In this document: one piece after another, positions 36,227-50,064 of the stretch | Layout of the letters: each line of letters starts with the position of its first letter | How positions within the stretch are numbered: position 1 is the first letter of the stretch | Assembly (NCBI GenBank): GCA_020341835.1 | Contig: CP070838.1 | Location: 1,544,487 to 1,600,883 of the forward strand | Reading direction: 5' to 3' | DNA from: Thiotrichales bacterium | GTDB taxonomy: Bacteria > Pseudomonadota > Gammaproteobacteria > SZUA-229 | Length of the DNA: 56,397 bases | Translations under genes and position numbers: made by a program | The notes under the pieces: model-generated | What the model saw: only the letters and a program-made list of their open reading frames with translations | Databases searched by the model: none | Told to the model about the DNA's origin: nothing

Positions 36227-38203
36227 TTATTTCGGCTTGAATCTTCGAACTGCACGTATGTATCGCTTGAGGAGCGCCTCGCTGTTATCGCAACTATAAC
36301 GCAAGCGTTCATAATCATCGGTTATCATTGCCAGCTCGCGCCGCTTGCTCGGCAAAAGCTGCATAACACGTGAAAGGAACTCCGTGGCACCTTCATTTGA
36401 CCTGTGCCGGATACCAACCTTCTCCAGCTTGCTGCAGAATTTTTCATAATATAACTTGATCTCGTCCCTGCGGCGTACCGGTTCCCGGTGAATCACCCAC
36501 CAGGCAACCAGGCTGCCGGCAACCGTCATCAACAACACCAGCCCCATCAGCAGATTGCTGCTGGTAACATTATTGAATCCGAGTAAACGGAGCAGTTCCT
36601 TCTGGCGGTCACTGTTAAACCCGACGATCCACTGGTTCCAGCTGTTACGGAAACTGTCCAGCATGTAACGGGCACGCTGAAAAACCACATTGTCTGAAAT
36701 CAGAATCGCAGGCAACAGATCGTGCTCGAGGCCGGCGTTTTCTATCCCGCGTTCTATCCGTGTTGGTGAAACCGCGGCTGTCGGGTCAACACGCACCCAG
36801 CCTTCATCTTCAAGCCACACTTCCGCCCAGGCATGTGCATCAGACTGGCGTACGATCATGTAATCGTCGAAGGGATGCATGGCACCGCCCTGATAACCCA
36901 CGACAACCCGTGACGGTATGCCCGCTGACCGCATCAGATACACGAAGGCACTGGCAAAATGCTCACAGAATCCACGGCGCGTGCTGAACAGGAAATCATC
37001 CATTGCATGCTCGCCCAGCAACGGTGGCGACAGGGTATAGGAAAACGCCTCGTTGCTGAAATATCTCAGCACATTGTTAATGTATGCATTACTATCCCGA
37101 TTCGATTCAATAAACAGCTTGCTGGCGAACTCTGCAGTATCCTGGTTCAGGCCTTCGGGCAGGGCGAGATTCTTGCGCCGCTCCGGCTCAAACAAACCGC
37201 CGTTTTCCGCACCGATATCAGACCGCAGCTGATAGTTCAGTACATCCGTCACCGGGCTGGCCGCGACCAGATGCATTTCCCGCGTGGCCAGCAGCGATCT
37301 GTCGTGCTGTATCGGCAGCTCGAGCGCATACAACCAATGCTGGTTGTGCGGTTCCAGCATCACCGTATAGCTGTATATTGTTTCAACAACATCTTCAGAA
37401 ACAATCAGCGGCCTGGCGAACGCAGGCGCATTCTCCATACGCCAGGTTCTGCCGTCATAGCTGGACAACGCAAGTCCGCGCCAGTACAAATCCGATCGCG
37501 GCGGCGGCTCGCTGTCGAATTGCACTCGAAACGCCACTTCGCCGGAAGCAATCAGGCGATTAATACTGCCGGGTGACATTTCTTCCGAAAGACCGGATGT
37601 CGCTGACCCGGCGTCTCTGGGCAAACCCCATAACGGGCCCGGCATGCGCGGAAACAGCACGAACAGGATCAACATCAACGGCACCGCCTGTGCAATCATG
37701 CGAAATGATTGATGGAGCCGCGCCTGTAATCGCATTGTTCCCAGGCGGTCACTGAACACAATCAGCAGGGATGTGAGATACACAACAACGACAAAAACAT
37801 GCGCTGCGATCAAAAGGCTCTGTGAATAGAAAAACTTGCTTGCGACCAGGAAAAATCCCATGAAGATAACAATTGCAATATCCCGGGTCGACTTCATTTC
37901 GAACAGCTTGAGAAAGGCGAGCAGCAGCAGCATGGCCGAACCCGGCAGTTGGCCGAGTATGGTGCCGAATGACAGCATTAACACCACTACCACCAGCACA
38001 GTCATTACAGCCAAAGCCCATCGACCAGGCCTTGCAGCCTTCCCGTTGATAATCAGCAATGCCCAGACGGTGAAAGCAGCAGTAAGCAGCAGCACCATGA
38101 CGGGCATATGCGGATACAGCGGCAGCGCCACAACGTGAATGCCCAGCAACAGCGGTGCGATAGGTTTGGTGAGCCTGTCTGCCGACAAAACGACTACCCC
38201 CAC
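36227..38203 (-). CDS. tgpA: TgpA-like transglutaminase-domain membrane protein (DUF3488 + transglutaminase core)
   Basis: 658 aa. About six N-terminal TM helices, then a catalytic region RRGFCEHFASAFVYLMRSAGIPSRVV..DAHAWAEVW (Cys-His-Asp triad context). Confidence 0.85.
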   Translation of the reverse strand: MGVVVLSADRLTKPIAPLLLGIHVVALPLYPHMPVMVLLLTAAFTVWALLIINGKAARPGRWALAVMTVLVVVVLMLSFGTILGQLPGSAMLLLLAFLKLFEMKSTRDIAIVIFMGFFLVASKFFYSQSLLIAAHVFVVVVYLTSLLIVFSDRLGTMRLQARLHQSFRMIAQAVPLMLILFVLFPRMPGPLWGLPRDAGSATSGLSEEMSPGSINRLIASGEVAFRVQFDSEPPPRSDLYWRGLALSSYDGRTWRMENAPAFARPLIVSEDVVETIYSYTVMLEPHNQHWLYALELPIQHDRSLLATREMHLVAASPVTDVLNYQLRSDIGAENGGLFEPERRKNLALPEGLNQDTAEFASKLFIESNRDSNAYINNVLRYFSNEAFSYTLSPPLLGEHAMDDFLFSTRRGFCEHFASAFVYLMRSAGIPSRVVVGYQGGAMHPFDDYMIVRQSDAHAWAEVWLEDEGWVRVDPTAAVSPTRIERGIENAGLEHDLLPAILISDNVVFQRARYMLDSFRNSWNQWIVGFNSDRQKELLRLLGFNNVTSSNLLMGLVLLMTVAGSLVAWWVIHREPVRRRDEIKLYYEKFCSKLEKVGIRHRSNEGATEFLSRVMQLLPSKRRELAMITDDYERLRYSCDNSEALLKRYIRAVRRFKPK

Positions 38204-38326
38204 CTGCAGCAGACCAGCGGAAAAGAATTCGTGCTCATTTTCACACTGGCAATTGCGAGCACCGGCAAACGTGGTGAATCGCTCACTGACAAACCGGCCT
38301 GCAACTGTTCTCGGACAGTATCCACT

Positions 38327-39334
38327 CTACTCCCTCCCGTACAGCGCCAGCGTCTTCAAACAATGCTGATAATGCCTGACGCCGTGGTCGGGACTGATCT
38401 CGACACCCGGCAGTCGCAAACCATAATGCCATTGCCCGGCCTCGGCATCGATCACCAGGCGCGCCATAATCGAAAGCCGCGCCTCTGTACCGCTGGCAGC
38501 GATCGCATTCCATTCTATCCACTGCATCTCCGGCTTGCCGCCGGTGAACTCCTTGGTGTGTAACTGGGCGGTTCGTGCAGCCGCCTTCCATGACACCCTG
38601 CGCCAGGAATCACCCGTCCGGTACTTGCGTAATCCTGCAAACTCCTCGATTCCATCCCCGTATAAATCGCTTTCACCATCGGAAACGGCGTCACTAAGCG
38701 GCAGCTCGGCAACCTTGACCGGCTTCGGATAGACAACACATTCCATGTTCAAATCGATCCACGTCCACGCCACGAACAAACCTGTAGGAAACTCTGTACT
38801 CAAGCGAAACCGGCCCGAGCGGAGCAAGCCGCGATGTTTCGCTTTTCTTTTGAAATGAAGCTGTCCGACACTTTCCGCTTTCACGTCGATGACTTAGTGC
38901 TCCTGGCCTTCCTGGCTGATTGCTATCGAGTACCGCGTCAGCTGATCACGGTTTTCGAGCTGAACGGTAAAGCTTGCGTTTTCACCGCTGAATACCGGCG
39001 AACTCCCCCCAGCACGCAGCTTCAATCCGGCGAGATTTCGCCAGGTCGCAAACATCGCGACATTACCAACACCAACAAGCAGAAATACCAGCACGAAGCC
39101 CAGACTCTTGCCGTAATTGACCGAGCCCAGCAGCAGAATAATAAGAAGCAAACAGAACAGAAGACCGATATTTGTCGGCAGGATATACACCCTGTTTTTA
39201 TCCAGCACGACCTCGCCATCGTAAGGCCCGCTGCGCCGTAACATAAAGTTGAACGCGGGATTACGCACAAAATCAGTCAGCCTTGTTCGAGAAACGAGTG
39301 GCAAGGATCCGCTCTTCAGGGAACAGGAACACAC
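38327..39334 (-). pseudogene. DUF58-family protein (MoxR partner) interrupted by a single in-frame TAA
   Basis: ORFs 38894-39334 (TM N-terminus) and 38327-38884 (DUF58 core EEFAGLRKYRTGDSWRRVSWKAAARTAQLHTKEF) are in the same frame. They are separated only by a TAA (38894-38896) plus three sense codons: ..QEGQEH*VIDVKAESV.. Confidence 0.7.
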
Positions 39335-40266
39335 GCGGCGATGAAATCAGCAGCACTCTGATGTTTGGTATCAAGATCGTCCGATGTTTTTACAAGCCGG
39401 TGATTTACCACAGCGGGCAACACTTCCTTGATATGTTCGGGCAGCACAAACTCCTTGCCATCGATCAATGCCAGAGCCCTGGCCGAGTTCAACAGCGCAA
39501 GGCCGCCGCGCGGAGACAGCCCGACCTCGAACATCGGTGAGCTGCGGGTGAACTCCAGCAACGCCTGCACATAATCGAGCAAAGCATCAGCCACGAAGAT
39601 ATCCGCTGCCTGCCTCTGGATGGAAGTCAGCTTGCTTGCATCCAGAACCGGCTTGATATGTTCAATCATGTCGCGCCGGTCCTCGCCCTGCAGTAATTCA
39701 CGCTCCGCCTCCTTGCCCGGGAAACCAAGGTGAAGACGCATCAGAAAACGGTCCAGTTGTGACTCCGGCAACGGGTATGTCCCGATTTGATGCACTGGAT
39801 TCTGCGTCGCGATGACAAAGAACGGTTGCGGCAGGTCGCGGGTCTCGCCTTCCACCGTCACCTGGAACTCTTCCATCGCTTCAAGCAATGCACTCTGGGT
39901 CTTGGGCGTTGCCCGATTGACCTCATCGGCAAGAATGAAATGTGAAAAAATCGGGCCCTGGTGAAATTCGAACAGCGCCCGTTCCCGATCGTAGACAGCA
40001 ACACCGAGTACGTCGGCCGGTAGCAGATCAGAAGTGAACTGAATGCGCTGGAAGTCGAGCCCCATGACCTGCGCAATGGCGTGCGCCAGCGTCGTTTTAC
40101 CGACACCCGGCAAATCCTCGATCAACAGGTGCCCTCGCGCGACCAGACAGGTGAGCGCCAGCCGTATCTGGTCATCCTTTCCGAGTATTATCCTGCCAAT
40201 TTGTTCTGCGGCGTGTTGCAGTATTGCGGTTGCAGCACTGCGCACCTTGGGATCGGTCGCTTGCAT
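39316..40266 (-). CDS. MoxR-family AAA+ ATPase
   Basis: 316 aa with GHLLIEDLPGVGKT (Walker A), ILADEVNRA (Walker B) and the typical MoxR C-terminus. Confidence 0.92.
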   Translation of the reverse strand: MQATDPKVRSAATAILQHAAEQIGRIILGKDDQIRLALTCLVARGHLLIEDLPGVGKTTLAHAIAQVMGLDFQRIQFTSDLLPADVLGVAVYDRERALFEFHQGPIFSHFILADEVNRATPKTQSALLEAMEEFQVTVEGETRDLPQPFFVIATQNPVHQIGTYPLPESQLDRFLMRLHLGFPGKEAERELLQGEDRRDMIEHIKPVLDASKLTSIQRQAADIFVADALLDYVQALLEFTRSSPMFEVGLSPRGGLALLNSARALALIDGKEFVLPEHIKEVLPAVVNHRLVKTSDDLDTKHQSAADFIAACVPVP

Positions 40267-40414: not shown

Positions 40415-42397
40415 CTAGAAAATACCAAAAAGCTTCTTTTCTTCCTTGTGTTTCCGCAGGATATCGACGATCGCGGACTTGTCGCCCAGCTCAGCCAGCG
40501 TAATCGCCTGTTCACGTTTATCATTGCGCAAGTCAATGTCTGCACCCGCATCCAGCAGCACCTTGACGGTTCCCGCGCTGTCGGCCAGCACCGCCAGAAT
40601 CAGCGGCGTATTGCCAACGCCATTTTTTCCGTTTACGTCAGCACCCTTGCTGATCAGCATGCCGACCGTGTCGGCATTGCCCTTGCTTGCAGCGAGCATC
40701 AATGGGGTATTGCCATCTTCGGCTGCCACATCAACCTCGATCCCTTTGGCTATCAACCGCGCCGCCACTGCAGGCTCTTCCCGGGCTGCCGCCTTATGCA
40801 ACAATGAAAATCCGTTTTTGTCGCGCCGGTTTATATAACGGTATTTTTTCAGTAACAGACCAACCAGATCCGCGCTGCCTGACTCAACCGCATACCACAG
40901 TGCATCATGCCCTGATTCATCCTTCAAACCGACTTCTCCGCCGGCGTTCAACAGGCGACCAACGGTTGATAACGGCATGCCGCTCGCCGCCATCATCATT
41001 TCACCCTTGCCGTCTATGAGCTTGTTGGTCGGCCTGGCACCTGCATCCAGCAGCATTTCTACGGTTTTCTCATGACCGCTCTCGATAGCATAAAACAGTG
41101 CGCTGCGTTTCTTGCTATCAACCGCAACGACATCGGCACCTGCATTCAGCAGCGCAACAACGACCTTGTCCTTACCGTTGTCACTGGCCCACATCAATGG
41201 GGATTTACCATTGCGGTCAGGCTTGTTTACATCAGCCCTGGCGGCAATAAGCTGATCCGTTATTTTGTCATGGCCCTGTATTGCCGCACGTGTCAGCGGT
41301 GTATGCCCTTCCCTGTCACGCTGGTTTGGATTTGCACCTTTTTCCAACAGCAAAGCCAGCACGTCGTCCTGACCACGCCATACCGCGATCATCAACGGGC
41401 TCCAGTTCTTGTATACATCTTTGGCACCGGTATTGATTGCCGCCAGTTTCTGCTTTGCCGTCAGCGTTTCCTTGCGCGCCACAGGCAGGCGGGCACCGTA
41501 TTTCTGTAACAGGCTAACGGTGGATTGATGTTTCCCCTTGGCAGCCAGCTCTATTGCATTTTCACCATTACGATTTTTGGTCGAATGTTTTGCCTTGCTT
41601 TTTAACAGCTCGTTGACAGTGTTTTTATGTCCCCTGGCGGATGCCAGCATCAACGCCGTATTACCATTCGCATCAATATTATTGAGACTGGCACCATAAC
41701 CAATCAACTCGCGTACGATCAGGGTTTCACCGAGGGAAGCCGCCAGCATCAACGGCCTGTCCCTGTAGGCATCAACCGCATTGGCATCGGCGCCGTTAGC
41801 CAGCAACAGACTCACCATATCCCCGTTTTTCCGGCTGATCGCCTCCATCAATACCGAACGATTGTACTCATCCCGGGCATTGACGTCAGCGCCCTTTTCC
41901 AGCAGTTTTTTCACCGCGGCCGCATCACCCCTGCTGACTGCTAGCAGTATCGCTTCGTCCGGCTTCATATCAGCAAAATTCAGAGCATCGCCTTTATCAC
42001 CGAGCAGACTCAATCGTTTGGTCGCGTTCCGGTAACCCTGGTCGGCAGCCGCCTTGTACCAGAACACCGCCTTCACCAGGTCTTTCTTGACACCGATACC
42101 TTCTTCATAGAGAACACCCAGGGAATACTGAGCCCGCTTGTACCCTTGCGTGGCGGATTTTTTCATCCAGTACGCTGCCTTTTTGCTGTCCTCACGTGTT
42201 CCCTGGCCATTGCGGTACATGACTGCCAGATGGTACTGCGCTTCCTTGTCCCCGTTTTTCGACAGCGGCTCCAGTATCTTCACCGCTTTGGTAAAGTCCC
42301 TGGCACGAATCGCCATTTTCGCATCTGTAAGCGTTGCGGCCTCAGCGATAAAAGCCAGCAGCAGTAGAATCAGGGGTAATAATCTGTATCGACGCAT
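40415..42397 (-). CDS. Secreted Sel1-repeat + ankyrin-repeat protein (about 15 ANK repeats)
   Basis: Signal peptide MRRYRLLPLILLLLAFIAEAA. Two to three Sel1 repeats (AQYHLAVMYRNGQG.., AQYSLGVLYEEGIG..). These are followed by about 15 units of the G-x-T/S-P/A-L-x-x-A..G-x-x-x-x-V-x-x-LL-x-x-GA-D-x-N type. Confidence 0.9.
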   Translation of the reverse strand: MRRYRLLPLILLLLAFIAEAATLTDAKMAIRARDFTKAVKILEPLSKNGDKEAQYHLAVMYRNGQGTREDSKKAAYWMKKSATQGYKRAQYSLGVLYEEGIGVKKDLVKAVFWYKAAADQGYRNATKRLSLLGDKGDALNFADMKPDEAILLAVSRGDAAAVKKLLEKGADVNARDEYNRSVLMEAISRKNGDMVSLLLANGADANAVDAYRDRPLMLAASLGETLIVRELIGYGASLNNIDANGNTALMLASARGHKNTVNELLKSKAKHSTKNRNGENAIELAAKGKHQSTVSLLQKYGARLPVARKETLTAKQKLAAINTGAKDVYKNWSPLMIAVWRGQDDVLALLLEKGANPNQRDREGHTPLTRAAIQGHDKITDQLIAARADVNKPDRNGKSPLMWASDNGKDKVVVALLNAGADVVAVDSKKRSALFYAIESGHEKTVEMLLDAGARPTNKLIDGKGEMMMAASGMPLSTVGRLLNAGGEVGLKDESGHDALWYAVESGSADLVGLLLKKYRYINRRDKNGFSLLHKAAAREEPAVAARLIAKGIEVDVAAEDGNTPLMLAASKGNADTVGMLISKGADVNGKNGVGNTPLILAVLADSAGTVKVLLDAGADIDLRNDKREQAITLAELGDKSAIVDILRKHKEEKKLFGIF

Positions 42398-43701
42398 TAT
42401 GCGGTTCCGTACTTTGTTTCTACTTCTATACCGATAGACTTGAGAAATGGTGTTGGCAGAATACCGCCGGCACAGACAATGACCGCGTTGTTATCAATCG
42501 TTATATCCTTGTCATTGGCATTGATCGTAACCTTGTCATCGGTAATCTCTTTTACATTTGAGCTCATCAGCACATTCATTCGCCCTGCCTTCTGCGCATT
42601 GGCCACCTTGACCCGGTTTTTCTCCTTGGCCCGGGAAAACGCTTCGCTGCGGTAAGACAGGGTTACGGTTGTACCGGATTCTTCCGCGATACTCACTGCC
42701 GCTTCGAGTGCGCTGTCACCACCGCCAACCACGAGGACATGCTGACCACGGTACTGCTCGGGGTCTATCAGGCGATAGACCACTTTGGTTTTGTTCTCAC
42801 CGGGTACGCCCAGCGTACGCGGCGTTCCACGGCGCCCGATAGCCAGTAACACTGCGCGGGATTTGTAGTTGTTTTGCGTGGTCTTTATCCTGAAACCCTT
42901 TCCATCAGCTTCGATATTCTCCACTCGCTCGTTATCGCTTATCACCAGGCCTGTCGAACTGATGACACCCTCCCAGTATTCCATCAGGGATTCCTTGGTG
43001 GTTTCGCGAAAACGCATCTTGCCCACCAGTGGCAGCTGCACCGGCGCGGTCATTACAATTTTCCCACGCGGATAATGCGATACCGTTCCGCCCACCGTCT
43101 CCTGCTCCAGGGTAGCGAACCTGAGCTTACGCGCCTTGGCTGCCAGCGATGCACCGATACCCGCGGGACCGGCACCGACGATAACAAGATCAAGCTGTTC
43201 TTTGCGCCCGATACCATCGAGTTTGCTGATCGAATCAACGGCCATCACTCCTTGCGTAACAGCGTTCCTGATCAACCCCATGCCCCCCAGTTCACCCGCG
43301 ATAAAGATACCCGGCACATTGGTTTGAAAGTCCTGACCAACGTGCGGAATATCGACGCCACGCTTCTCGGTACCGAACACCAGCTCGATGGCATCAAACG
43401 GACAGGCTTTTTTACAGGCGCCGTGACCTATACAGTGCGTGGGATTAACCAGGTGCGCCTTGCCATGAATCACTCCCAGAACCCCGTGGCCGTGTTCAGG
43501 GCAGGCCTTGACGCAACTCGCGCACCCAAGGCAGCGATTACGGTCAATGACAGGATGCAAGGATGCAGGTTCGGTCAGCCCGGATGCAACGGCTTCTTCC
43601 AGAACCTGTCGACTGGTGCGCTGCTTTTTCGTCCGCTTCCACAGGTAAATGGCGAGTATCAAAAACAGCGGCACGGAATAGAGCCACATCAACTGGGACA
43701 T
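42397..43701 (-). CDS. Membrane-anchored ferredoxin-domain / FAD- and NAD(P)-binding oxidoreductase (thioredoxin-reductase-like fold)
   Basis: N-terminal TM (LYSVPLFLILAIYLW). One canonical CLGCASCVKACP motif and one degenerate CIGHGACKKACP Fe-S motif. GxGxxG sites LVIVGAGPAGIGAS and VLVVGGGDSALEAA. Its TAA stop shares one base with the ATG of the ankyrin gene (TAATG). Confidence 0.85.
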   Translation of the reverse strand: MSQLMWLYSVPLFLILAIYLWKRTKKQRTSRQVLEEAVASGLTEPASLHPVIDRNRCLGCASCVKACPEHGHGVLGVIHGKAHLVNPTHCIGHGACKKACPFDAIELVFGTEKRGVDIPHVGQDFQTNVPGIFIAGELGGMGLIRNAVTQGVMAVDSISKLDGIGRKEQLDLVIVGAGPAGIGASLAAKARKLRFATLEQETVGGTVSHYPRGKIVMTAPVQLPLVGKMRFRETTKESLMEYWEGVISSTGLVISDNERVENIEADGKGFRIKTTQNNYKSRAVLLAIGRRGTPRTLGVPGENKTKVVYRLIDPEQYRGQHVLVVGGGDSALEAAVSIAEESGTTVTLSYRSEAFSRAKEKNRVKVANAQKAGRMNVLMSSNVKEITDDKVTINANDKDITIDNNAVIVCAGGILPTPFLKSIGIEVETKYGTA

Positions 43702-43819
43702 GTCGATAACTCCGCAACAAGCACACTGTCACTCAGGGAAAGTGCATATATGACTGGCATGATGAAATAAACTGCGTTAGAACTGGTGATTCTTTTGTAC
43801 ATGCAATATAGCAGAACTT

Positions 43820-43840
43820 GTGCAAAATTTTCCGACAAAT
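43820..43840. promoter_or_regulatory. Copy 1 of a 21-bp direct repeat in the divergent control region (candidate operator)
   Basis: gtgcaaaattttccgacaaat. 19 of 21 bases are identical to 43959-43979. A third partial copy, aattccgacaaac, lies at 43945-43957. Confidence 0.35.
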
Positions 43841-43958
43841 CAGCTGAATTCCCACGGAAAAACAGGGTAAACTAGAGCCTTCAAATGCGCACAAAAACTC
43901 CCATAAGGTATTGTTTTTAGCTATATCTCCTTGATATTGGAAACAATTCCGACAAACG

Positions 43959-43979
43959 GTGCAAAATTCTCCGACATTT
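43959..43979. promoter_or_regulatory. Copy 2 of the 21-bp direct repeat (candidate operator)
   Basis: gtgcaaaattctccgacattt, 139 bp downstream of copy 1 and about 95 bp upstream of the ATG at 44073. Confidence 0.35.
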
Positions 43980-44072
43980 TTATAGTGCTCTACTAGACTG
44001 AGCTTGGCAGATCGCTATAATTCGCATGGGAATATTTTACCAAAAAAATAACATTTGAAGGTACACCCTGGT

Positions 44073-44996
44073 ATGAGCAACGTAAACACTCTTGAGGGCA
44101 GCCAGGCTACACACCAGTTAAAGGATGACTCCTCCGAACGGTCATCAAACGGGCTAGTCAAGGCAATAAAAAAACCAGTCGCATTGACACACGAGCATCT
44201 GTTCACTATCAGTGTCGTCGCGATTTTGATATATGGCTGGAGCCGCCGGGATGATAACTACATCAGCGCCGAGAACGGTGCCGGATATATCCTGGGGATC
44301 GTCGGCGGCAGCCTGATGCTGCTGCTGATCCTTTATCCGATCAGCAAAAGAACCGAGTTACTCAAGCGGCTGATACCGATGCGCTTCTGGTTCGGCATGC
44401 ACATGCTGTTTGGCATCATTGGTCCGGTAATGATTCTGTTTCATTCTAATTTTCATATTGGCTCGATGAACAGCACTGTTGCACTGCTCAGCATGTTACT
44501 GGTGGCGTTCAGCGGACTGATTGGCCGCTATATCTATACCCGTATTCATCACGGCCTGTACGGCAAACGCATCACCCTGGGGGAACTCAAGCAGGAAGCA
44601 GAAGCACAGCACTCAGAGCTGCTACGCATTTACAGGCTGGACAAAAAGCTGAATCAGCGACAGACCTCGATGGAAACCAGGGCATTACAGAATTATACAG
44701 GCGTGACCAGAACCCTGATCCATGGCCTGTTGTTGTCGATTGATTCACGTCGCCTGCGCTCCAGAACCAGAAAACTGTTAAAGGCAGCCTGCAATCGGGA
44801 CGCGCTGAAAATGACACCCAACAAGGCTGCTGTGATCATGGGATTCGTTGACCGATACTCGGCTGCACTGCACAAGATCGTCGTTTTCCGGATCTACGAA
44901 CGACTGTTTTCGTTCTGGCATGTCCTGCATCTGCCGCTTTTCATCATGATGATTATCACCGCGATCATTCATATTTTTGCGGTACACATGTACTGA
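44073..44996 (+). CDS. His-rich five-TM inner-membrane protein, candidate di-haem-b transmembrane electron carrier
   Basis: The track ORF starts at TTG 44055; the ATG at 44073 is preferred. Two TM helices each carry an H-x13-H pair (GMHMLFGIIGPVMILFH and HLPLFIMMIITAIIH). It is the first gene of the cytochrome operon. Confidence 0.7.
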   Translation: MSNVNTLEGSQATHQLKDDSSERSSNGLVKAIKKPVALTHEHLFTISVVAILIYGWSRRDDNYISAENGAGYILGIVGGSLMLLLILYPISKRTELLKRLIPMRFWFGMHMLFGIIGPVMILFHSNFHIGSMNSTVALLSMLLVAFSGLIGRYIYTRIHHGLYGKRITLGELKQEAEAQHSELLRIYRLDKKLNQRQTSMETRALQNYTGVTRTLIHGLLLSIDSRRLRSRTRKLLKAACNRDALKMTPNKAAVIMGFVDRYSAALHKIVVFRIYERLFSFWHVLHLPLFIMMIITAIIHIFAVHMY

Positions 44997-45021: not shown

Positions 45022-46620
45022 ATGCGATCACATTTACATGGCTGTTGCCGGCTCATTCTCACACTCTCGATCATGCTCATTGCACTCGACAGCCATGCAG
45101 ACAACCTGAAGTCCCTGTTGATGCCGGGCCCCGTTATCAAGGCCCATGAAAAATACGAACAGCAATGTGATAAATGCCACGACACATCGGACAAGTCCAG
45201 GCAGGGCCGCTTGTGCATGGATTGCCACGACCATAAAAACATCCTCGAGGATATCAACAAGAAATCAGGCTTTCATGGCCGCCTGCCTGGACCACAGAAA
45301 ACCGACTGCAAACACTGCCATACCGAACACGAAGGCAGAAATGCAAAAGTCATCCTGCTGGACCCTTCAACATTCGACCACTCGAAAACCGATTTCGAGT
45401 TAAAGGGTATACACGCAAAAACCAACTGCAAGGCCTGCCACAAGCCTGAGAAAAAATACCACGAAGCCCCACAGGACTGTTATAGCTGCCACGAGAAGGT
45501 GGATGTACATGAGGGCGAACACGGCAAGAAATGCGGCGACTGCCATTCACCAAAGAGCTGGAAGCAGAACGCGTTTGATCATGACGAAAAAACCGATTTC
45601 CCGTTAAAAGGCGCACACAAGGAGACACTGTGTTCCTCCTGTCATCTGAATCAGAAATTCAAGGACACGAACAAAAACTGCATCGGCTGCCACAAGATCC
45701 AGGACATCCACCAGGGCGGCTACGGCACGAAGTGCGAGCTCTGCCACACATCGGAAAAATGGGACGAGATACATTTTGATCACGGCAAGGAAACCGAATT
45801 CAAACTGCTGGGTAAACACAAGCAGGCCTCATGTAACAGCTGTCATACTGCAGAAACCCTGAAAAAGAACAGGAAAACGAAAAAGAAACTGCCCAGGGAC
45901 TGCTACGGTTGCCACAAGCATGATGACAGCCATAAAGGCAGAAACGGGGAGAAATGCCAGGACTGCCATAATCCGAAATCATGGCAAAAGTACAAATTTG
46001 ACCATGACCGGAAAACCGAGTTTCCACTGCGCGGCAAGCATAAAGATTTGAACTGCTCCTTCTGCCACAAGGGTGACATCGAAAAAGACAAGCCGAAAAA
46101 AGACTGCATCGGCTGTCACAAAAAAGATGATGTCCATCATGGCAAACAGGGCGAGCAGTGCGACAACTGCCATAACGAAAAAGGCTGGCACGACAAGATC
46201 TTTTTCGACCACGACCTGTCAAGTTTTCCACTGATTGGCATGCATGCCGCGATCCAGTGTGAAGAATGTCATCTGACATCCGTCTACAGATCAACCGACA
46301 GCGAATGCAATGACTGCCATGCGGGTGATGATGTACACAAAACACGCCTCGGTACCGACTGCGAAACCTGCCACAACCCGAACTCCTGGGAAAACTGGCT
46401 TTTTGATCATGACCAGGCGACACAGTTTGAAATCGACGGCGCCCACGAGGACCTGGGTTGTTATGACTGCCACAGGACAAAATCAAAGGGAAAACTCAAG
46501 GCATCTCGCGACTGCATTTCATGCCATCGCAGTCAGGATGTCCACAGTCGACAGTTCGGCAGGCAGTGCGGAAATTGTCACAGCACCACAAGCTTTAAAG
46601 ACGTCAACCTAAAACGATGA
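45022..46620 (+). CDS. Periplasmic 21-haem cytochrome c built from seven trihaem c7-like units
   Basis: Signal peptide ..LIALDSHA/DN. I counted exactly 21 CxxCH motifs, arranged as seven repeats of the form FDH..T.F.L.G.H....CxxCH / CxxCH..D.H.G..G / CxxCH....W. Confidence 0.92.
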   Translation: MRSHLHGCCRLILTLSIMLIALDSHADNLKSLLMPGPVIKAHEKYEQQCDKCHDTSDKSRQGRLCMDCHDHKNILEDINKKSGFHGRLPGPQKTDCKHCHTEHEGRNAKVILLDPSTFDHSKTDFELKGIHAKTNCKACHKPEKKYHEAPQDCYSCHEKVDVHEGEHGKKCGDCHSPKSWKQNAFDHDEKTDFPLKGAHKETLCSSCHLNQKFKDTNKNCIGCHKIQDIHQGGYGTKCELCHTSEKWDEIHFDHGKETEFKLLGKHKQASCNSCHTAETLKKNRKTKKKLPRDCYGCHKHDDSHKGRNGEKCQDCHNPKSWQKYKFDHDRKTEFPLRGKHKDLNCSFCHKGDIEKDKPKKDCIGCHKKDDVHHGKQGEQCDNCHNEKGWHDKIFFDHDLSSFPLIGMHAAIQCEECHLTSVYRSTDSECNDCHAGDDVHKTRLGTDCETCHNPNSWENWLFDHDQATQFEIDGAHEDLGCYDCHRTKSKGKLKASRDCISCHRSQDVHSRQFGRQCGNCHSTTSFKDVNLKR

Positions 46621-47927
46621 GCGGTACGCCACTGATGAGCCAGAACACCAGAACAAGAATCATCGGCTTCACGATCACAGCGCTATGCCTGCTGGTAGTG
46701 TCCAGTCTGATCATACTGACCAATTCGGCAAGCTATGCCGCTGACGAGACCAAGGGTTTTGACCATTTCACCACCGGCTTTCCGCTGAACGGCAAGCACC
46801 AGTACATCGACTGCTCCAGCTGCCACATCGGTGGCCAGTTCGCCGGCACGCCGCTGGAATGCGTGTTGTGCCATAACGACAGTCGCGCACCCGGAAAGAA
46901 TCCAGACCATCTTCCCAGCAGCAACATCTGTGATGACTGTCATACAGAAGACAGTTGGCGGGGAGCGCGATATGACCACAGCAGTATCATCGGCCCCTGC
47001 ACGAACTGCCACAACAACGTTGTTGCACTCGGCAAGTCACCGTCGCATATTCTGTCAACAGCACAATGCGAAGACTGTCATAATACAATCACTTTCACCC
47101 GCGTCGGCCGGGTCGACCACGTCTCAGTTATCGGCAGCTGCAGCTCATGTCATAACGGCGTGATATCCATCGGCAAACACCCGGGGCACATACAGACCAC
47201 ATCTGAATGCGATATCTGCCATAACACGATCACATGGCGCGGCGCCGGCTTTGACCATTCCACGGTTACGCAGCCCTGTGCGACCTGCCATAACGGCGTG
47301 ACTTCAACAGGCAAACATCCTGGACACATACAGACCACGCTGGATTGCGAGTTCTGTCACAATACAACGTCATGGCTGAACGCGCGTTTTGATCATGCCG
47401 CAGTGACGCAACCCTGTTCCGCCTGCCACAACGGTGTCACCGCAACCGGCAAACCGGCGAACCATTTGCCAACCACAGGTGAATGCAACAGCTGTCACTT
47501 TACCAACTCCTGGACCAACATCAGCTTCGATCACTCGACCGTGACCGGTCTGTGTTTGAGCTGCCACAACGGCTCGATCTCGACCGGCAAATCGACAACG
47601 CATTTTGTCACGACACTGGATTGTGACCGCTGCCACAGTACAGCAACCTGGATCCCATTGATCCTGTTCAGGCACGACTCACCTGACTATCCGGGCGACC
47701 ACCGCACGACGGTACTTTGTGTGGACTGCCACCGTACGAACAACCAGGTGATCGCATGGCCGTTCCCGGCCTATCAGCCTGACTGCGCCGGTTGTCATGC
47801 CGACGATTATCTACCGGCACCTCATGACAACCAGACGGTCGATGTGCTGCGCGATTGCGCCGGCAGCTGCCACATCGGCGGAGTCACCCGTAGCGCCGAG
47901 CATCGTACCAGCGCCGCCGGCTGGTAA
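46617..47927 (+). CDS. Multihaem cytochrome c with 15 CxxCH plus one CxxxCH (CAGSCH), built from about 46-aa dihaem tandem repeats
   Basis: ATGA overlap with the upstream gene. Signal peptide ending SASYA/AD. Motifs counted by eye. Six units of the form CxxCHNGxxxxGKxxxHxxTxxxCxxCHxxxxWxxxxFDHxxVxxx span aa 82-360. Confidence 0.9.
   Translation: MSGTPLMSQNTRTRIIGFTITALCLLVVSSLIILTNSASYAADETKGFDHFTTGFPLNGKHQYIDCSSCHIGGQFAGTPLECVLCHNDSRAPGKNPDHLPSSNICDDCHTEDSWRGARYDHSSIIGPCTNCHNNVVALGKSPSHILSTAQCEDCHNTITFTRVGRVDHVSVIGSCSSCHNGVISIGKHPGHIQTTSECDICHNTITWRGAGFDHSTVTQPCATCHNGVTSTGKHPGHIQTTLDCEFCHNTTSWLNARFDHAAVTQPCSACHNGVTATGKPANHLPTTGECNSCHFTNSWTNISFDHSTVTGLCLSCHNGSISTGKSTTHFVTTLDCDRCHSTATWIPLILFRHDSPDYPGDHRTTVLCVDCHRTNNQVIAWPFPAYQPDCAGCHADDYLPAPHDNQTVDVLRDCAGSCHIGGVTRSAEHRTSAAGW
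46860..47696 (+). repeat. Six in-frame tandem coding repeats (period about 138 nt) inside the 15/16-haem cytochrome gene
   Basis: Units 3 and 4 are about two-thirds identical at protein level by eye (CSSCHNGVISIGKHPGHIQTTSECDICHNT.. versus CATCHNGVTSTGKHPGHIQTTLDCEFCHNT..). Confidence 0.8.
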
Positions 47928-48009: not shown

Positions 48010-50064
48010 ATGCCTTCAGCCACGATACGCCAGCAGCTTGTGACAGCCGTAGTCAGTACGGTTGTGTTCCTGTTTCTGCTAATCGTTGCTGTCGAATCTC
48101 ATGCCGCGAGCAAATCATCTGAATCCTTCGTGATCGTGCTTGCATCAGCACCCGGCACGAACCTGAACTGGAAGCCGAAAAAAAACCCCCTGTTCAAGGG
48201 CCGCACCATCTATGTCACCCGGGCGACCGTAAAAGGCAAACCCTGGGAGAGGCTGAACCTGGGCTTCTTCAGCAGCCGCCAGAAAGCCGTGCTGGTGATG
48301 AACGATGTTCAGCACCAGTACCCTGGTGCCTGGCTCAGGGAGGTTACAGCTGACGAAGTCCAAAGGGCCAGCGGCAAGGCACTGGTCGCTCCCACTGCGA
48401 AGCCGGCACCAAAATCTTCAACAGCCATCGCCAATACCTCGACATTAACGGACGAGCAACTCGATAGCCTGATGCAGCGCGCAAAAAATGATTTCAAGAG
48501 CAACAACTATGCGCAGGCAATTCGTTATCTGAAAGCAATTATCGCTGCAGGCGATCACAAATATTCAATGGAAGCACTGGAACTGCTTGGGCTGTCACGA
48601 CAGCGCAAGGGGCAGAATGCCCATGCCGCCAGGATTTATCGCGAATACCTCGAAAAATATCCCGAAAGTGAAGGCGCTGTGCGTGTCTCACAACGCCTGA
48701 CCGGACTGATGACAGCCACCCAGGAACCCAGGGAAAAAATTCATATGGAAGCAGAAGCGAAGCCGGTGTCCAGCACATCCGTGTTCGGCAGCTTTTCTCA
48801 GTATTACCGCAGGGACAGGGCCGAGGCGGATGATCTGGATGAATCACTGACCACGCTGTCGCAGCTGATTACATTTCTGGATCTGACAACCCTGCACCAG
48901 TCAGCGCGATTTGACCACCGTTTTCAGTTCGTCGCCGATGATACCTATGATTTTCTGGAAGAGGAAGAACAGAACTCGTTCCGGTTTATTGAAATGTATT
49001 ACGACCTGGGTTCGAGAATGACCGGCACATCGGGCAGGATCGGCAGGCAGGCTTTACGCCTTGGCGGCATCCTGAGAAGGTTCGACGGTATCTCGGCAGG
49101 TTACCAGTTCACACCGGGCATGCGCCTCAATCTGCTCGGCGGTTACCCGGTAGATATTGACAACAATACCTCGATCAATGAGCACAAAAAGTTTTATGGC
49201 GTGACCTTTGAAACCGGCACCTTCCTGCAGCACTGGGACATGAATCTGTTTTACTTCGACCAGAGCATCGATGGCATCGATGACGCCAGCAATGTCGGCA
49301 CAGAAGTCCGTTACAACGACAGGACCACTTCTCTGTTCGGCATGGTTGATTACAACCTGGACTACAAGGAACTGAACATCCTCCAGTTCAATGCCAACCT
49401 GCTGTTCGACCGGGGCCGAGCGGCCTACATGAACGCCTTCATGCGCAAAGCACCGGTGCTTTCCACCAGCAACGCACTGATCGGGCAAACGGAAGAAACG
49501 ATCGAGGAACTGCTGCAAACGCTGAGCATCGAGCAGGTCTACCAGCTGGCACGCGATCGCACCGCCGACAGCGCCACTATCACCATAGGCGGCTCGTCGC
49601 CGATCAGTGCGAAGTTCCAGACCAATGCGGATATCACTTTTTCCAAGGTTACCGGCACCCCGGCTTCGGGCGGTGTACCGGAAACACCCTCGACCGGTAC
49701 CGATTACTTCATCAGCGCACAGATCGTCGGTAACGACCTGATACTGAAACGAGATACCGGTGTGCTCGGTATACGCTATCTCGACAGCAGACTGTCAAAC
49801 ACCTGGGCGTTTATTGCCAATACCCGAATTCCGATATCACGCGACTGGCGCCTGAACCCGCGTCTGCAGTATGACATACGCAAACTTACCGACGGCCGCT
49901 CTCAGGACAAGCTCAGATTGCTGGTAAGAACCGATTACAGGTACTTGAACAAGATTCGATTTGATCTCGAACTCGGCTACGAGAACACCAGTGATGAACT
50001 CAACGGCCAATCACTCGGCACCAATAATTTCTTCCTGATGGCTGGCTACCGCTGGGATTTTTGA
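48010..50064 (+). CDS. Outer-membrane beta-barrel protein with an N-terminal SPOR-like domain and a TPR segment
   Basis: Signal peptide ..AVESHA/AS. SPOR-like segment FVIVLASAP..WERLNLGFFSSRQKAVLVMNDVQHQYPGAWLREV. TPR-like segment NNYAQAIRYLKAI..ARIYREYLEKYPESEGA. The C-terminal roughly 400 aa have an alternating-hydrophobic pattern and end in the OMP beta-signal FFLMAGYRWDF. Confidence 0.75.
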   Translation: MPSATIRQQLVTAVVSTVVFLFLLIVAVESHAASKSSESFVIVLASAPGTNLNWKPKKNPLFKGRTIYVTRATVKGKPWERLNLGFFSSRQKAVLVMNDVQHQYPGAWLREVTADEVQRASGKALVAPTAKPAPKSSTAIANTSTLTDEQLDSLMQRAKNDFKSNNYAQAIRYLKAIIAAGDHKYSMEALELLGLSRQRKGQNAHAARIYREYLEKYPESEGAVRVSQRLTGLMTATQEPREKIHMEAEAKPVSSTSVFGSFSQYYRRDRAEADDLDESLTTLSQLITFLDLTTLHQSARFDHRFQFVADDTYDFLEEEEQNSFRFIEMYYDLGSRMTGTSGRIGRQALRLGGILRRFDGISAGYQFTPGMRLNLLGGYPVDIDNNTSINEHKKFYGVTFETGTFLQHWDMNLFYFDQSIDGIDDASNVGTEVRYNDRTTSLFGMVDYNLDYKELNILQFNANLLFDRGRAAYMNAFMRKAPVLSTSNALIGQTEETIEELLQTLSIEQVYQLARDRTADSATITIGGSSPISAKFQTNADITFSKVTGTPASGGVPETPSTGTDYFISAQIVGNDLILKRDTGVLGIRYLDSRLSNTWAFIANTRIPISRDWRLNPRLQYDIRKLTDGRSQDKLRLLVRTDYRYLNKIRFDLELGYENTSDELNGQSLGTNNFFLMAGYRWDF

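Follow-up and report, generated by a model that had tools for sequence, protein, structure and literature searches.

Porin–cytochrome clusters of the PCC3 type, as described by He et al. (2017; PMC5566968), combine a porin with extracellular and periplasmic multihaem cytochromes and an inner-membrane protein (IMP) of ~300 residues. In the published description the extracellular cytochrome is rich in Thr, Ser, Ala and Gly and has a family median of 34 haems, the periplasmic cytochrome has a median of 21 haems, a low amino-acid-to-haem ratio and internal repeats, and the IMP has five transmembrane (TM) helices, with an SGXXG motif on TM4 and WX3HX13H motifs on TM3 and TM5 (PMC5566968). Hosts are distributed over the Alpha-, Beta- and Gammaproteobacteria and include tubeworm endosymbionts and Amphritea atlantica, whose protein carries 21 haems (PMC5566968). 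The periplasmic protein of the Riftia endosymbiont has 21 haem motifs at an amino-acid-to-haem ratio of 26 (PMC5566968, Supplementary Figure 1B), arranged in repeats of ~66 residues (51-115, 125-190, 192-257, 259-325, 327-393, 395-460 and 462-526), the first of which scores lowest (PMC5566968), and versions with 21, 24 and 27 haems are known from Gallionellaceae (Hoover et al. 2023; PMC9900912). Here, we describe a candidate PCC3-type locus in a stretch of 56,397 nucleotides (the window) from a Thiotrichales bacterium (GCA_020341835.1, contig CP070838.1), in which an open reading frame encodes a 21-haem c-type cytochrome.

The open reading frame (45022..46620, + strand) begins with ATG at 45022, ends with a TGA stop at 46618-46620 and encodes 532 residues. 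We read it as the periplasmic multihaem subunit of a PCC3-type porin–cytochrome cluster, operating by the conduit mechanism proposed below, and give this reading a probability of roughly 0.65. The assignment was made through the published cluster description (PMC5566968; example Slit_0869 of Sideroxydans lithotrophicus ES-1). The architecture agrees with that of the Riftia endosymbiont protein almost to the residue, and the likeness to PCC3 extends over 21 haems, ~25 residues per haem, seven repeats of ~66 residues with a weaker first one, and a gammaproteobacterial host. The neighbouring genes are likewise those of PCC3, namely an IMP of ~300 residues with SGXXG and two WX3HX13H motifs, a Thr/Ser-rich cytochrome and a putative outer-membrane protein. 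Two features set the locus apart: the surface cytochrome has 15 haems against the family median of 34, and a conserved iron–sulfur (FeS) flavoprotein and an ankyrin/Sel1 protein, which the PCC3 papers do not list, accompany the cluster. The 21-haem protein is thus a further member of an already described, widespread and bioinformatically defined family, although its sequence is itself new, an exact-sequence lookup having returned no identical copy on record.

An earlier sequence-only reading of the same DNA had counted 21 CxxCH motifs in 532 residues, or about one haem per 25 residues, and an exact motif count agrees on both points, with 25.3 residues per haem and motifs at residues 49, 65, 96, 136, 153, 171, 204, 220, 238, 271, 294, 312, 345, 362, 380, 413, 429, 447, 480, 498 and 516. 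Chance does not approach this number, as 20,000 shuffled versions of the protein averaged 0.35 motifs and never exceeded 4. Nearly all of the cysteines (42 of 44) lie within CxxCH; the remaining two, C8 and C9, fall in a predicted Sec-type signal peptide (residues 1-26; 45022..45099, +) with a hydrophobic segment at residues 4-23 and a cleavage site, predicted from the sequence, between DSHA and DN. A lipoprotein was considered and rejected, there being no lipobox after the hydrophobic segment. The protein is Lys/Asp-rich in composition and matches the Pfam families PF14522, PF14537 and PF02085.

Splitting the protein with a regular expression built around F-x-H...H-x(3-6)-CxxCH gives six clear trihaem repeats behind an N-terminal trihaem unit, seven repeats of ~66-74 residues in total. 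The first unit (residues 28-114; 45103..45363, +), with haems at C49, C65 and C96, is divergent, sharing 28-36% identity with each of the others, and is followed by six regular repeats (45364..46617, +) at residues 115-183, 184-250, 251-324, 325-393, 394-459 and 460-532, whose FDH starts lie at residues 118, 185, 252, 326, 395 and 461 and which are 33-53% identical among themselves. The split and these identities confirm the sevenfold organization with a divergent first unit that the sequence-only reading had proposed, and the motif pattern it gave, running from FDH through the CxxCH motifs to a Trp, recurs in the consensus of 49 repeats taken from the protein and its homologues (FDHxxTxFPLxGxHxxxxCxxCH-x11-CxxCHxKDDxHKGxxGxxCExCHxxxxWK). 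Outside the haem motifs, three His are invariant in each regular repeat and four in unit 1 (H42, H71, H85 and H103). At the DNA level, TRF detected no tandem repeat within the 21-haem gene; a recent expansion of DNA repeats was rejected on this result, and the trihaem repeats are for the same reason regarded as old.

Conservation of these features is extensive. Across 20 homologues at 57-80% identity, all 21 CxxCH motifs and 22 further His are invariant, a number that, judged from sequence, would suffice for bis-His ligation of every haem, so that all 21 haems are probably bis-His. Relatives number 5,294 at E <= 1e-5 in a 90%-clustered database, the best being 80% identical. Among the top 120 of these, haem counts are 21 (83 proteins), 24, 27, 30, 33, 36 and 39, with a few proteins deviating from these by one or two haems, which indicates that the family grows and shrinks by whole trihaem units. 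With each species represented by a single genome, a scan recovered 72 loci: the nearest, at 75-77% identity, belong to uncultured Thiotrichaceae and gammaproteobacterial metagenome-assembled genomes, others occur in Candidatus Thiodiazotropha, Sedimenticolaceae, Methylococcaceae, Nitrospirales, Omnitrophota and Hyphomicrobiaceae, and remoter relatives are found in Bacteroidota, Neomarinimicrobiota, Planctomycetota and other groups. The suggestion that such a protein is unusual for a gammaproteobacterium is therefore contradicted, both by the nearest ~30 loci, which are gammaproteobacterial, and by the 21-haem, seven-repeat protein of the Riftia endosymbiont (He et al. 2017; PMC5566968). Moreover, the same gene layout is present in the endosymbiont of the siboglinid tubeworm Galathealinum, and the homologues in Methylotenera and in a siboglinid endosymbiont come close to the taxa listed by He et al.

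The PCC3 assignment also draws on the neighbouring genes. Directly upstream lies the gene for the IMP (44055..44996, +; likely start ATG 44073), a protein of ~300 residues with about five TM segments and a putative carrier of two b-type haems, in which WFGMH-x13-H occurs at residue 112, SGLIG at 153 and WHVLH-x13-H at 288; the four motif His, positioned as in di-haem-b proteins, are invariant in 24 sequences, and about five hydrophobic segments are present. As a side observation, the IMP family comprises 2,377 representatives at E <= 1e-3, and some long homologues have N-terminal extensions of 200-400 residues (TPR, SPOR or no recognized domain), which may be real fusions or mis-called starts.

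Downstream, the stop of the 21-haem gene overlaps the start of the next one (ATGA, 46617-46620), which encodes a 15-haem cytochrome of 436 residues with 15 CxxCH motifs (46617..47927, +). Its composition (Thr 11.7%, Ser 9.2%, Gly 7.8%, Lys 1.8%; poor in Lys and Glu) is that of the predicted extracellular subunit, and we infer an extracellular location for it. Within this gene, positions 47151-47454 (+) hold a tandem repeat with a period of 138 nucleotides (46 residues, two haem sites), 2.2 copies and 74% matches, and across loci the haem number of the surface cytochrome ranges from 10 to 43; the surface cytochrome, unlike the 21-haem gene, seems from its sequence to be expanding recently. The gene that follows (48010..50064, +) encodes a secreted protein of 684 residues with a signal-like N-terminus, a TPR region supported by weak matches and a C-terminal YRWDF, and is presumed to be the outer-membrane barrel (porin).

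These associations are not peculiar to the window. Linkage was counted in loci whose cytochrome is at least 40% identical and whose flank extends at least 4.5 kb upstream (54 loci) or at least 5.5 kb downstream (39 loci). On the upstream side, the IMP and the ankyrin protein were each found in 54 of 54 and the flavoprotein in 53 of 54, in 50 of them divergently oriented; on the downstream side, the second cytochrome was found in 38 of 39 and the outer-membrane protein in 37 of 39. The divergent intergenic region between the flavoprotein and IMP genes (43702..44054) is presumed to hold shared regulatory DNA and contains one promoter-like site (43994-44021, +; 10/12 matches); over the scanned region, predicted promoters and terminators are no more numerous than in shuffled sequence.

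The sequence-only reading had further called the repeats c7-type modules, a label that holds only in part. What stands is the trihaem polymer itself, the Pfam Cytochrome_C7 match (PF14522, 94.5 bits against a cut-off of 24.8) and the ranking of solved relatives: in the PDB, the 49-repeat profile finds GSU1996 (3OV0) first at E = 4e-10, followed by 3OUQ, 3OUE and 1RWJ, which are fragments of GSU1996, and the top match of a 7-haem profile is likewise GSU1996. On weaker ground are the similarity per domain, the match to the dedicated c7 family and the order of ligands. The best single-domain match to GSU1996 reaches an i-E of only ~0.008, and the whole-sequence E-value is strong because several weak repeats are summed; c3 polymers with nine and sixteen haems come close to GSU1996 in their scores against the repeat profiles (E ~1e-5 to 1e-7). 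NCBIfam TIGR04257 (c7-type nanowire_3heme) gave no match at E <= 0.01, phmmer with the whole 21-haem protein retrieved nothing from the PDB, where only the repeat profiles reach GSU1996, and hhalign against PpcA (query sequence identical to 1OS6) returned a probability of 21%. A fragment model of residues 158-322, which contain seven haem sites, was built from an alignment of 42 equivalent fragments and reached a pLDDT of 83.5; searched with Foldseek, it matched nothing in the PDB at E < 1, apo models of coil-rich cytochromes being poor queries.

HMMER aligns domain A of GSU1996 with the last haem of one repeat and the first two of the next (c,a,b), whereas hhalign places PpcA on the three haems of a single repeat (a,b,c), and the two registers conflict. 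The candidate distal His of the repeat lie before haem a (H6 and H18) and between haems b and c (H49), with none between a and b. Proteins of the c7 type and GSU1996 have two ligands (HxxH) ahead of haem I and a single His or Met between haems I and III, whereas the stretch from III to IV has no ligand; as a sequence pattern only, this order of 2, 1 and 0 is not reproduced in any cyclic phase of the repeat. Nor is there a recurring Met of the GSU1996 type, the mature protein containing only M34, M66 and M407; in GSU1996 one haem per domain is His-Met ligated (PMC10138318). A competing explanation is that the repeats are not c7 domains at all and constitute a separate class III (c3-like) trihaem family, whose c7 matches reflect mainly CxxCH spacing and composition. 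The low per-domain score, the near-equal c3 polymers, the TIGR04257, PpcA and Foldseek results, the ligand order and the disagreement on register would all be accommodated by it, while the PF14522 score far above the cut-off, the position of GSU1996 and its fragments at the top of the PDB matches and the resemblance of the FDH / F-P-x-x-x-x-H stretch before the haem to the N-terminus of c7 and c3 proteins argue the other way; we regard this explanation as a serious contender, somewhat short of even odds. Our own reading of these comparisons is that the repeats would form a trihaem family of the c3/c7 superfamily with GSU1996 as the nearest solved relative. This stops short of a PpcA-type identity, and cautious use of the "c7" label is advised until a haem-containing structure exists.

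A further element of the locus lies on the opposite strand. The flavoprotein gene (42397..43701, -) encodes a protein of 434 residues, predicted to be membrane-anchored and to carry 2x[4Fe-4S] and an FAD/NAD(P)-binding (TrxR/YpdA-like) domain, which we propose as the cytoplasmic partner of the IMP. Its N-terminus consists of a TM helix followed by KRTKKQR and then by two CxxCxxCxxxCP ferredoxin motifs; Pfam assigns Fer4 families and Pyr_redox_3 (E = 8e-45), NCBIfam matches of the YpdA/TrxR type remain below cut-off, and inspection of the TrxR/YpdA-like domain shows no redox-active CxxC. No other protein of the cluster is as well conserved, the best match being 88% identical compared with 80% for the cytochrome. 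Beside it, and sharing one nucleotide with it, is a gene (40415..42397, -) for a 660-residue protein with a signal peptide and Sel1 and ankyrin repeats (Pfam Ank_2, Sel1), which accompanies the cluster in Proteobacteria and in a small number of further phyla. This one-base overlap (42397), together with the ATGA overlap of the two cytochrome genes, suggests translational coupling within each divergent arm.

The flavoprotein link extends well beyond close relatives. In Methylotenera, the flavoprotein and IMP genes lie directly upstream of a 27-haem homologue, and in Nitrospira CG24C the flavoprotein and Sel1 genes are found ~8 kb from the cytochrome. Furthermore, in Bacteroidales, Bacteroidetes, Neomarinimicrobiota, Marinamargulisbacteria and Planctomycetota, the flavoprotein and a protein with two WX3HX13H motifs adjoin a 17-20-haem cytochrome, although in these distant phyla the gene order differs and the cytochrome is only ~27-33% identical. 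Because linkage is kept through such rearrangement, flavoprotein, IMP and cytochrome are taken to form a functional trio. A reciprocal context search starting from the flavoprotein returned at least 120 matches, and this test is not independent because those listed are all at least 72% identical. The hypothesis that follows is that the conserved core consists of the flavoprotein, a di-haem-b membrane protein and a trihaem-repeat cytochrome, and that the four genes of the published set do not complete the cluster. The paper of He et al. (2017; PMC5566968) is silent on FAD, pyridine nucleotide, 4Fe-4S, ankyrin and cytochrome c7, no paper in the library searched joins PCC3, ankyrin and multiheme, and neither Hoover et al. 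(PMC9900912) nor the CL21 preprint links the flavoprotein to PCC3. A passage in Table 1 of PMC9900912 may refer to the same flavoprotein linkage.

The mechanism we propose builds on a hypothesis already published for the family, in which He et al. (PMC5566968) put forward a periplasm-spanning molecular wire, an idea repeated in PMC9900912. After export by Sec, the 21-haem protein would be loaded with 21 covalent haems, and the mature holoprotein of ~71 kDa would form an elongated, linear haem chain. Its length can be estimated by proportion from the haem spacing of MtrA, for which 10 haems in about 100 Å are cited in PMC5566968, and of GSU1996, in which 12 haems stand in line 3-5 Å apart (PMC10138318); the resulting ~17-21 nm, an analogy with other multihaem cytochromes, would be close to the ~200 Å of the periplasm (PMC7096707). 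AlphaFold models of PCC3 cytochromes are long and mostly linear (PMC9900912), and a wire across the periplasm is, by this analogy, plausible. At the inner membrane the chain would meet the five-TM protein predicted to hold two b-haems, and its other end would contact, or reach into, the presumed outer-membrane barrel and the 15-haem surface cytochrome, so that electrons could traverse the periplasm with no need for diffusible carriers. Towards the cytoplasm, the membrane-anchored FeS-flavoprotein would probably link the haem chain with NAD(P)H or with another donor or acceptor of this kind.

Instead of a fixed bridge, the 21-haem protein might serve as a periplasmic electron store, a capacitor that buffers fluctuating external donors or acceptors. 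Such a role has been raised for PCC3 by Hoover et al. (PMC9900912), and GSU1996, the nearest solved relative, is itself regarded as a periplasmic capacitor, as are GSU0592 and the 27-haem GSU2210 (PMC10138318). The tight linkage to the IMP, the second cytochrome and the outer-membrane protein suits a fixed conduit better, and storage and conduction are compatible in any case; a store in place of a bridge therefore strikes us as quite improbable.

Several observations weigh against the conduit reading and lower our confidence in it. The full-length AlphaFold2 model, computed with 20 close homologues, has a pLDDT of 35.5 and is unusable. The two b-haems of the IMP are predicted from its motifs alone; the protein has no Pfam or NCBIfam match, its profile has no relative in the PDB, and hhalign against E. 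coli MsrQ, a member of the FRD family, gives a probability of 0.15%. The outer-membrane barrel is presumed, and if the cytochrome sat partly inside it, as MtrA does in its barrel and as may be the case here, less length would be left for the periplasm. Additionally, no fusion of FeS-flavoprotein and IMP was found among the long IMP homologues, there are no experimental tests of any PCC3 component (PMC9900912; bioRxiv 10.1101/2025.02.27.639646), and both PCC3 clusters of Sideroxydans ES-1 are down-regulated on Fe(II) (PMC8788666).

The last of these points also bears on the model of He et al. (PMC5566968), in which electrons are taken up from extracellular Fe(II) or minerals and passed through the IMP to the quinone pool; on this model the flavoprotein would be irrelevant. 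Carriers inhabit environments rich in iron and sulfide, Cyc2 is present in some of them (PMC5566968), and one of the PCC3 copies of Sideroxydans CL21 shows increased expression of its IMP gene during iron oxidation. Against these indications stand the response of ES-1, the fact that most carriers are not known iron oxidizers (PMC5566968), and the retention of the flavoprotein beside IMP and cytochrome across phyla and gene orders, which is hard to explain if it is idle; we consider the uptake model in this form unlikely. The conserved flavoprotein suggests a cytoplasmic terminus at an NAD(P)H-like carrier, and not (only) at the quinone pool of He et al., and, judged by potentials alone, electrons moving outward from NAD(P)H would run downhill. 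A bolder proposal, tentative and in our estimate doubtful, is that PCC3 constitutes a conduit through the entire envelope that is linked to NAD(P)H and independent of quinones, assembled from a split NOX/Fre-like unit of flavoprotein and di-haem-b protein, a hard-wired 21-haem chain, a barrel and a surface cytochrome. If this were true, the pyridine-nucleotide pool would be coupled directly to extracellular acceptors or donors, and the periplasmic ankyrin/Sel1 solenoid could act as a scaffold or sheath for such a conduit.

The rest of the window is made up of ordinary chromosomal genes (ThiC, lipopolysaccharide synthesis, GlnE, TgpA/MoxR), and no multihaem open reading frame was found in it beyond the 21-haem and 15-haem genes. 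Just beyond the ankyrin gene, the genes for a TgpA transglutaminase-like protein and a MoxR-type AAA ATPase (36227-40266, -) look like an ordinary module unrelated to the cytochromes.

In Shewanella and Geobacter, the ~20-nm periplasm is crossed by diffusing small cytochromes, and a single polypeptide spanning it would be a different solution. The PCC3 cytochrome family is abundant in sulfur-oxidizing symbionts and sediment bacteria; the present locus adds one member to it, and the conserved flavoprotein link offers a lead. Among characterized proteins, GSU1996 (3OV0), a periplasmic linear haem chain, is similar in being a single polypeptide of repeated trihaem units, and as in c7 polymers generally, three CxxCH motifs occur per unit of ~65-80 residues, arranged head to tail. 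It differs in having four c7-type domains (a dodecahaem protein of Geobacter sulfurreducens) where seven units are found here, in having one His-Met haem per domain where each repeat here has three invariant His and no conserved Met, in lacking the FDH His of the repeat, and in not being reported within a porin–cytochrome cluster.

The systems MtrCAB and MtoAB resemble the proposed arrangement in that a periplasm-facing wire (MtrA or MtoA) is coupled to a barrel in the outer membrane, to which Mtr adds a surface cytochrome. MtrA, with 10 haems and a length of about 8-10 nm, is too short to span the periplasm and relies on CymA and soluble carriers, and the 21-haem protein does not match TIGR03508 (MtrA/DmsE decahaem), which the 15-haem neighbour alone matches, below cut-off. 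At the inner membrane, the comparison is with NOX/FRE and MsrQ–Fre. No sequence similarity could be detected between the IMP and either MsrQ or an FRD protein of solved structure, and the flavoprotein is TrxR/YpdA-like with 2x[4Fe-4S] in place of a ferredoxin-NADP reductase-type enzyme; nevertheless, the H-x13-H pairs of the IMP on TM3 and TM5 and the cytoplasmic flavoprotein encoded alongside recall these systems, and in both cases electrons from NAD(P)H would be carried across the membrane.

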